NCBI RefSeq assembly: GCF_009931435.1
Contig: NZ_CP043414.1
Length of the DNA: 64,000 bases
Source: Escherichia coli
Lineage (GTDB): Bacteria; Pseudomonadota; Gammaproteobacteria; Enterobacterales; Enterobacteriaceae
Reading direction: 5' to 3' (one strand)
The number at the start of each line of letters is the position of its first letter. Within the stretch, counting starts at the first letter, position 1. Below are positions 63,612 to 63,945 of the stretch, one piece after another. Both the position numbers and the translations under genes were made by a program. Below the pieces are notes generated by a model. That model ran no database searches. It worked only from the letters and a program-made list of their open reading frames with translations, and had not been told where the DNA came from.

Positions 63612-63708
63612 TCCTTTGTCCTCTTTGGGGTAAATGTCCCTTTCAACATCATTGACTTTCACATACGAGTCAAATGCATTTTTTTGCAAAAAGTGTTGGA
63701 CAAGTGCG

Positions 63709-63727
63709 AATGAGAATGATTATTATT
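63709..63727 (+). promoter_or_regulatory. Fur box overlapping the ryhB promoter
   Basis: aatgagaatgattattatt resembles the Fur consensus GATAATGATAATCATTATC, immediately upstream of the ryhB 5' end. Confidence 0.75.
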
Positions 63728-63732
63728 GTCTC

Positions 63733-63822
63733 GCGATCAGGAAGACCCTCGCGGAGAACCTGAAAGCACGACATTGCTCACATTGCTTCCAGTATTACTT
63801 AGCCAGCCGGGTGCTGGCTTTT
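63733..63822 (+). ncRNA. ryhB: Iron-responsive small RNA RyhB
   Basis: Sequence gcgatcaggaagaccctcgcggagaacctgaaagcacgacattgctcacattgcttccagtattacttagccagccgggtgctggctttt matches RyhB from memory, including the terminal hairpin and U tract. Confidence 0.9.
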
Positions 63823-63945
63823 TTTTTTGACCTTTCGTTCTCAATTTATCCACGGGAAGTGCTTGTGTTTGTTATGCGCACTCCTGTAGGAACCGCGTCC
63901 GCTTTGCGCTAAGGTGTAAATAACCACCTTAAAAAGGACGAAATC

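Follow-up and report, generated by a model that had tools for sequence, protein, structure and literature searches.

Genes and features between yhhY and yhhX

The right-hand end of the window (by which we mean the whole stretch of Escherichia coli DNA that was analysed, 64,000 nt long) carries a small RNA gene flanked by two protein-coding genes. On one side, yhhY occupies 63123..63611 on the minus strand and encodes a GNAT N-acetyltransferase (PF00583, 1.9e-16; RefSeq annotation); the ORF has an ATG start and begins MSEIVIRHAETRDY..., and it is named yhhY in the RefSeq matches, including a 99%-identical record. On the other side, the oxidoreductase gene yhhX starts on the plus strand and runs off the window (63947..64000), its ATG aligning with the K-12 yhhX start (MVINCAFIGFGK...). 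Between the two lies the ryhB transcription unit, at 63733..63828 on the plus strand. Its +1 is 121 bp from the yhhY ATG, and the two genes are transcribed apart, which agrees with the divergent arrangement described in an earlier reading made from the sequence only (the sequence-only reading below). The gene yhhX follows 118 nt downstream of the ryhB T-run on the same strand.

When the segment 60000..64000 was searched against all 4,227 families of Rfam with a permissive E-value limit, the RyhB family RF00057 was the sole match, at 63762..63826 (+), with 83.1 bits and an E-value of 2.2e-15 on 4 kb. All 67 positions of the model (1-67) were aligned, so that the match is not truncated. The sequence-only reading had proposed a covariance-model scan as its check, with the lack of a significant hit as the refutation; the hit obtained was significant, its 83.1 bits lying clearly above the gathering score of 55. 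It was found again when the 64-kb window was scanned at gathering thresholds (E 3.6e-14). That scan also returned two other families above gathering elsewhere in the window, naRNA4/CssrE (RF02564, 67.5 bits, 38948..39025, +) and ES036/CssrF (RF02751, 42 bits, 6591..6631, −).

Because RF00057 spans just the 3′ two thirds of the RyhB RNA, the 5′ end of the RNA needs placing by homology. The 5′ 29 nt (63733..63761) were checked by their identity to the curated ncRNA ryhB of K-12 (b4451), which is recorded at 3580922..3581016 on the minus strand of NC_000913.3, between yhhX and yhhY. Since the sequence is identical to that of K-12 ryhB, we infer that the RyhB +1 is the G at 63733. In a three-way alignment of the window, K-12 MG1655 and the best-matching RefSeq genome, the segment 63664..63822, which contains the promoter, the Fur box and the RNA body, was identical base for base in all three, and the identity to K-12 begins 69 nt before +1 and includes the whole terminator stem. 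K-12 has the same −35, −10 and Fur box, the same gene order yhhX-ryhB-yhhY and the same distance of 121 bp to the yhhY ATG. Within the ryhB unit the two sequences differ at one place only, the terminator tail, where the stem is followed by nine T in the window and by eight in K-12. The sequences around the identical block do vary, with 2 substitutions in the 74 nt of the upstream flank and, over the 124 nt from the T-run to the yhhX start, 6 differences including one indel. The Rfam match and the identity with K-12 across promoter, Fur box and RNA body bear out the statement of the sequence-only reading that the RyhB sequence is intact.

The unit consists of GCGATCAGGAAGACCCTCGCGGAGAACCTGAAAGCACGACATTGCTCACATTGCTTCCAGTATTACTTAGCCAGCCGGGTGCTGGCT at 63733..63819 (+), followed by nine T at 63820..63828, and is 96 nt long with the T-run included. 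The published length of the terminated RyhB RNA is ~90 nt, and the 3′ end of an RNA of that length would fall in the U tract, near 63822. The "90-nt RyhB" of the sequence-only reading therefore matches the terminated RNA and falls short of the genomic unit. The range it gave, 63700-63830, leaves out the start of the −35 hexamer, which begins at 63697, 3 nt outside. Its description of the locus as a known element agrees with our comparison, in which 63697..63828 is the K-12 ryhB sequence bar one T.

Taken together, we consider it nearly certain (probability about 0.98) that 63697..63828 (+) is the chromosomal ryhB gene, consisting of a sigma-70 promoter, a Fur box over the −10 region, a ~90-nt Hfq-dependent sRNA and an intrinsic terminator. 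It is an intact, already known and ordinary element, and nothing in the analysis spoke against this identification. The evidence obtained here consists of sequence identity, Rfam membership, the Fur box over the −10, the terminator, synteny, and cross-species conservation with covariation. For the scan, the match serves as a quality control, as a textbook Fur-regulated sRNA was recognised. In the PGAP-annotated RefSeq genomes listed there is no feature over ryhB, and just the curated K-12 record has the ncRNA; annotation-based pipelines would therefore see an "empty" intergenic region of 335 bp at this place.

Promoter, Fur box and RNA domains

A consensus scan of 63400..64000 found a sole sigma-70-like site, which matches the consensus at 10/12 positions with an 18-nt spacer. 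It is composed of the −35-like hexamer TGGACA (63697..63702, +), which is the same in K-12, and the −10 hexamer TATTAT (63721..63726, +), which ends 6 nt before the homology-inferred +1. The Fur box GAGAATGATTATTATTGTC (63712..63730, no strand assigned) overlaps the −10 and ends 3 nt before +1. We searched the window for the Fur consensus GATAATGATAATCATTATC, in the version quoted in PMC3423075, allowing up to three mismatches, and this box was the one match in 64 kb, agreeing with the consensus at 16/19 positions; 0.01 matches per window are expected by chance, as estimated from dinucleotide-preserving shuffles. Being identical to the K-12 site, it upholds the claim of an intact Fur-box-like site upstream of RyhB. 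The identical site of K-12 has been scored at 25.2 bits and predicted as a cluster of four overlapping sites (PMC2189734). In the same study, Chen et al. (2007) confirmed Fur binding to the K-12 ryhB site by gel shift, and the "yhhX" Fur site of an earlier in vivo screen was explained as being really the ryhB promoter (PMC2189734). From its position in the sequence, the Fur box covering the −10 has the geometry that would be expected for repression by promoter occlusion.

Among the matches listed for other gammaproteobacterial species, 119 core sites had enough flanking sequence, and 119/119 of them had a Fur-like 19-mer in the 150 nt preceding the core, with best scores of 13-18/19 and a mode of 15-16. 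In control windows of 150 nt taken at random from the same loci, the best Fur match had a median of 10/19 and a mode of 10. A few control windows reached 15-17/19, and we think that these overlapped the same or neighbouring Fur sites.

The RNA can be divided into four parts. The 5′ stem-loop domain (63733..63767, +), delimited by pair counting over 45 homologues, is closed by a long-range helix between nt 1-7 (63733..63739) and nt 29-35 (63761..63767), of which the third and fourth pairs are mismatches in the window as well as in K-12. It is followed by the conserved core, the target-pairing stem-loop ACGACAUUGCUCACAUUGCUUCCAGU (63768..63793, +; model positions 7-32 of the Rfam consensus structure), which is identical to K-12 and includes the 22-nt core ACATTGCTCACATTGCTTCCAG at 63771..63792. 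The next seven nucleotides form an A/U-rich single-stranded linker, AUUACUU (63794..63800, +), which is unpaired both in the Rfam consensus and in the fold. Hfq binding is an established property of RyhB, and the linker together with the U tail is presumed to be the Hfq contact. The last part is the intrinsic terminator (63801..63828, +), found by a terminator scan and by pair counting over the homologues; its stem AGCCAGC/GCUGGCU (63801..63819) has 7 bp, of which five are G-C pairs, and a 5-nt loop, and the nine T follow.

To assess the helices comparatively, we aligned 45 RyhB homologues whose 5′ domain is of the E. coli type. Across these, the terminator stem was 99% paired and changed on both sides at 4/7 pairs; that is, it shows compensatory changes among homologues. 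The long-range 5′ helix was 85% paired, and its closing pair shows G-C to A-U exchanges. As a control, the 3′ partners were slid by 1-3 columns, upon which the whole two-helix structure was only 26-48% paired. Since the search pattern prescribed the 22-nt core, the core carries no covariation information in this set. For a MAFFT alignment of the 45 homologues RNAalifold gave next to no structure, owing to misalignment of the variable 5′ insert, and explicit pair counting on the named helices was used in its place. Folded as a single sequence, RyhB has a minimum free energy of −24.1 kcal/mol and is no more stable than shuffled sequences (z −0.67), as is common among short sRNAs whose pairing region is open. 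The minimum-energy fold favours a shorter local 5′ hairpin, unlike the comparatively supported helix.

The length of the T-run after the stem varies in nature. It is nine in the window, eight in K-12 and in RMDEC465, and seven in E. albertii; in homologues elsewhere ~6 to 9 T follow the stem and the total T-runs are 7 to 10. The extra T of the window is probably neutral, though it touches the Hfq-binding U tail. There is a minor possibility that the longer U tail alters the efficiency of termination or the affinity for Hfq, and hence the read-through into yhhX.

Conservation of ryhB beside a divergent yhhY

To see how widely this sequence is shared, we searched 5,426 complete E. coli genomes for the 130-nt segment that starts in the −35 region and extends up to and including the terminator stem (63690..63819). 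It was contained in 5,424 of them, and in 5,413 of these 5,424 it was at least 99% identical to the window. Beyond the species, a search with one genome per species found at least 120 loci with the unaltered 22-nt core, belonging to Enterobacterales, Vibrionales and Aeromonadales. A yhhY homologue is divergent from and adjacent to the core in at least 31 of the fetched loci (in one of them it is cut by the contig end), and the genera with yhhY beside the core include Escherichia, Citrobacter, Enterobacter, Klebsiella, Kluyvera, Yersinia, Serratia, Erwinia, Pantoea and Rahnella. The divergent pairing of yhhY and ryhB is thus old.

Many Enterobacterales genomes and some of the Vibrionaceae have two loci with an identical 22-nt core, of which the 5′ domains and terminators differ, and in Salinivibrio two copies of the core are 306 nt apart. 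The window differs from these genomes in having one core locus; a second RyhB paralogue was considered and rejected, as the core occurs once in the window.

In contrast to ryhB, the neighbouring yhhY of the window is a divergent allele, with 82% protein identity to K-12; the corresponding values are 97.5% for E. albertii and ~86% for Citrobacter. The allele is rare: among 5,423 complete E. coli genomes, nucleotide identity to it is at least 95% in only 17 and 80-90% in 5,209. Along the gene, an identity of 60-92% to K-12 gives way to one of at least 96% at ~63524, around codon 29 of yhhY and ~210 nt upstream of the ryhB +1. This switch in the alignment suggests a recombination or import breakpoint. 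Because the breakpoint is located inside yhhY, ryhB sits just inside the conserved side of the mosaic junction. The near-invariant ryhB next to a highly divergent yhhY allele illustrates purifying selection on the sRNA beside a recombination-prone junction.

On the far side of yhhY, K-12 has a 3.45-kb block, yhhZ-yrhA::IS1E-yrhD-yrhB, between yhhY and ggt, and this block is missing both in the window and in RMDEC465; in the window the stop of ggt (63073) and that of yhhY (63123) are 49 nt apart. The aligned stretch that extends from inside ugpQ through yhhA and ggt has only ~94% identity to K-12. As a whole, the window is E. coli-like and not close to any complete RefSeq genome. For 40000..64000 the best record, RMDEC465 from human stool in Thailand, was 98.6% identical over 24 kb, and most were 95-99% identical.

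Alternative readings and expected regulation

An ATG-initiated open frame of 92 codons extends over 63634..63912 (+) in the ORF list, as the sequence-only reading stated, and raises the question of whether a real protein gene overlaps the sRNA or replaces it as the reading of this interval. The frame spans the ryhB promoter, the Fur box, the whole sRNA and the strong intrinsic terminator, and comparable open frames exist in K-12 (95 aa), RMDEC465 and E. albertii (84 codons stop-to-stop). However, the T-run indel of 1 nt, together with another indel, puts K-12 in a different frame from the window, so that the last ~30 residues of the K-12 counterpart are unrelated; this shows that there is no selection on the frame. 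Among 102 loci, this frame stays open over a median of 50 codons, and the open length is 48-77 codons (stop-to-stop) in Enterobacter, Citrobacter and Klebsiella. The start of the ORF lies upstream of the sole promoter-like site, and the frame continues across the strong terminator. The product belongs to no Pfam family (best E 0.65, below the cut-off), and an exact look-up found neither the window version nor the K-12 version among ~15 billion predicted proteins. In addition, the RefSeq records examined have no annotated CDS in the region. The ORF is thus a chance open frame, spurious by five independent criteria plus the RefSeq annotation just as had been claimed; we give a protein gene virtually no chance, regard that reading as effectively refuted already, and suggest that the reading frame drawn across ryhB be ignored. 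A 34-aa TTG ORF inside RyhB gave no hits in a Pfam scan.

Two further alternatives accept the sRNA gene and differ about its condition or its function. The copy might be a decayed, non-functional remnant, silenced for example by the nearby recombination or rearrangement in which most of yhhY was replaced and the yhhZ-yrhB block was lost. The mosaic breakpoint ~210 nt upstream of +1, the absence of the K-12 island between yhhY and ggt and the one-T difference in the terminator tail could be seen in this light. But the breakpoint falls within yhhY and well away from the 121-bp intergenic region, homologues naturally have T-runs of 7 to 10, and the −35, the −10, the Fur box, +1, the core and the terminator stem are all identical to K-12. 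With all known functional parts the same as in K-12, we rejected decay, which has a vanishingly small likelihood. The other alternative gives ryhB a dual function, as a base-pairing RNA and as the message for a nonapeptide. In one study of EHEC, ribosome footprints were reported on ryhB and a peptide, RyhP (MAHIASSIT), initiated at an ATT codon was proposed (PMC5331693). The corresponding frame, IAHIASSIT*, is intact in the window (63773..63802, +), and plasmid-expressed RyhP is reported to have affected competitive growth relative to stop-codon controls (PMC5331693), which would point to a role of its own under iron limitation. The experimental basis is this single study relying on over-expression, the start codon is ATT, and the Shine-Dalgarno-like motif preceding it is weak. 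The first seven codons, moreover, fall inside the RNA-pairing core, and their conservation is therefore explained by the function of the RNA with no need for a peptide. Beyond the core the frame is not conserved. We compared 124 core sites, made up of the fetched loci among the matches listed and the window itself, and the nine-codon frame was kept at only ~30 of them; at most core sites it runs through the terminator into unrelated sequence for 12 to >50 codons. In a dual-function sRNA the frame and length of the ORF would be conserved beyond what the RNA function explains, and here the position of the stop varies. RyhP is thus unproven and the comparative data do not support it; a dual function seems improbable to us. 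Nothing unusual in the ryhB sequence points to a RyhP role or to an effect of the U tail.

We return to ryhB as an intact gene for a base-pairing sRNA. The position of +1, the repression by Fur, the binding of Hfq and the regulation of targets are taken from the literature on the identical K-12 sequence, and the last three are likely to apply to this strain as well, given that identity. In K-12-type regulation, Fe2+-Fur represses ryhB and RyhB accumulates on iron starvation (PMC8544716). The RNA pairs with ~20 mRNAs, sodB and sdhC among them, whose products are iron-using proteins; this pairing blocks translation and triggers decay by RNase E and the degradosome, and Hfq is an essential partner for the rapid decay and for the stability of the sRNA (PMC8544716). 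Transferred to the window, this predicts that in iron-replete cells Fe2+-Fur on the box would block RNA polymerase at ryhB, and that when iron is scarce Fur would leave the box and RyhB would be made. In sodB, sdhCDAB and other mRNAs whose protein products use iron and are non-essential, the translation-initiation region would then pair with the conserved single-stranded core. Such pairing would block translation and, via Hfq, recruit RNase E and the degradosome, so that scarce iron may be spared.

The other RyhB RNAs of Gammaproteobacteria (RyhB-1 and RyhB-2 of Salmonella and those of Yersinia, Klebsiella and Vibrio) have the 22-nt core, the upstream Fur box and the intrinsic terminator in common with the window. 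They differ from it in their 5′ domains, and the 3′ parts of the Vibrio RNAs are much longer. The ryhB of Klebsiella is likewise repressed by Fur and adjoins yhhY (PMC3423075). The iron-sparing strategy is also found outside this family of sequences. PrrF1 and PrrF2 of Pseudomonas and FsrA of Bacillus are Fur-repressed sRNAs that spare iron by repressing the mRNAs of iron-using proteins. These are functional analogues that have no sequence homology to RyhB, whereas the element in the window is a true RyhB homologue.
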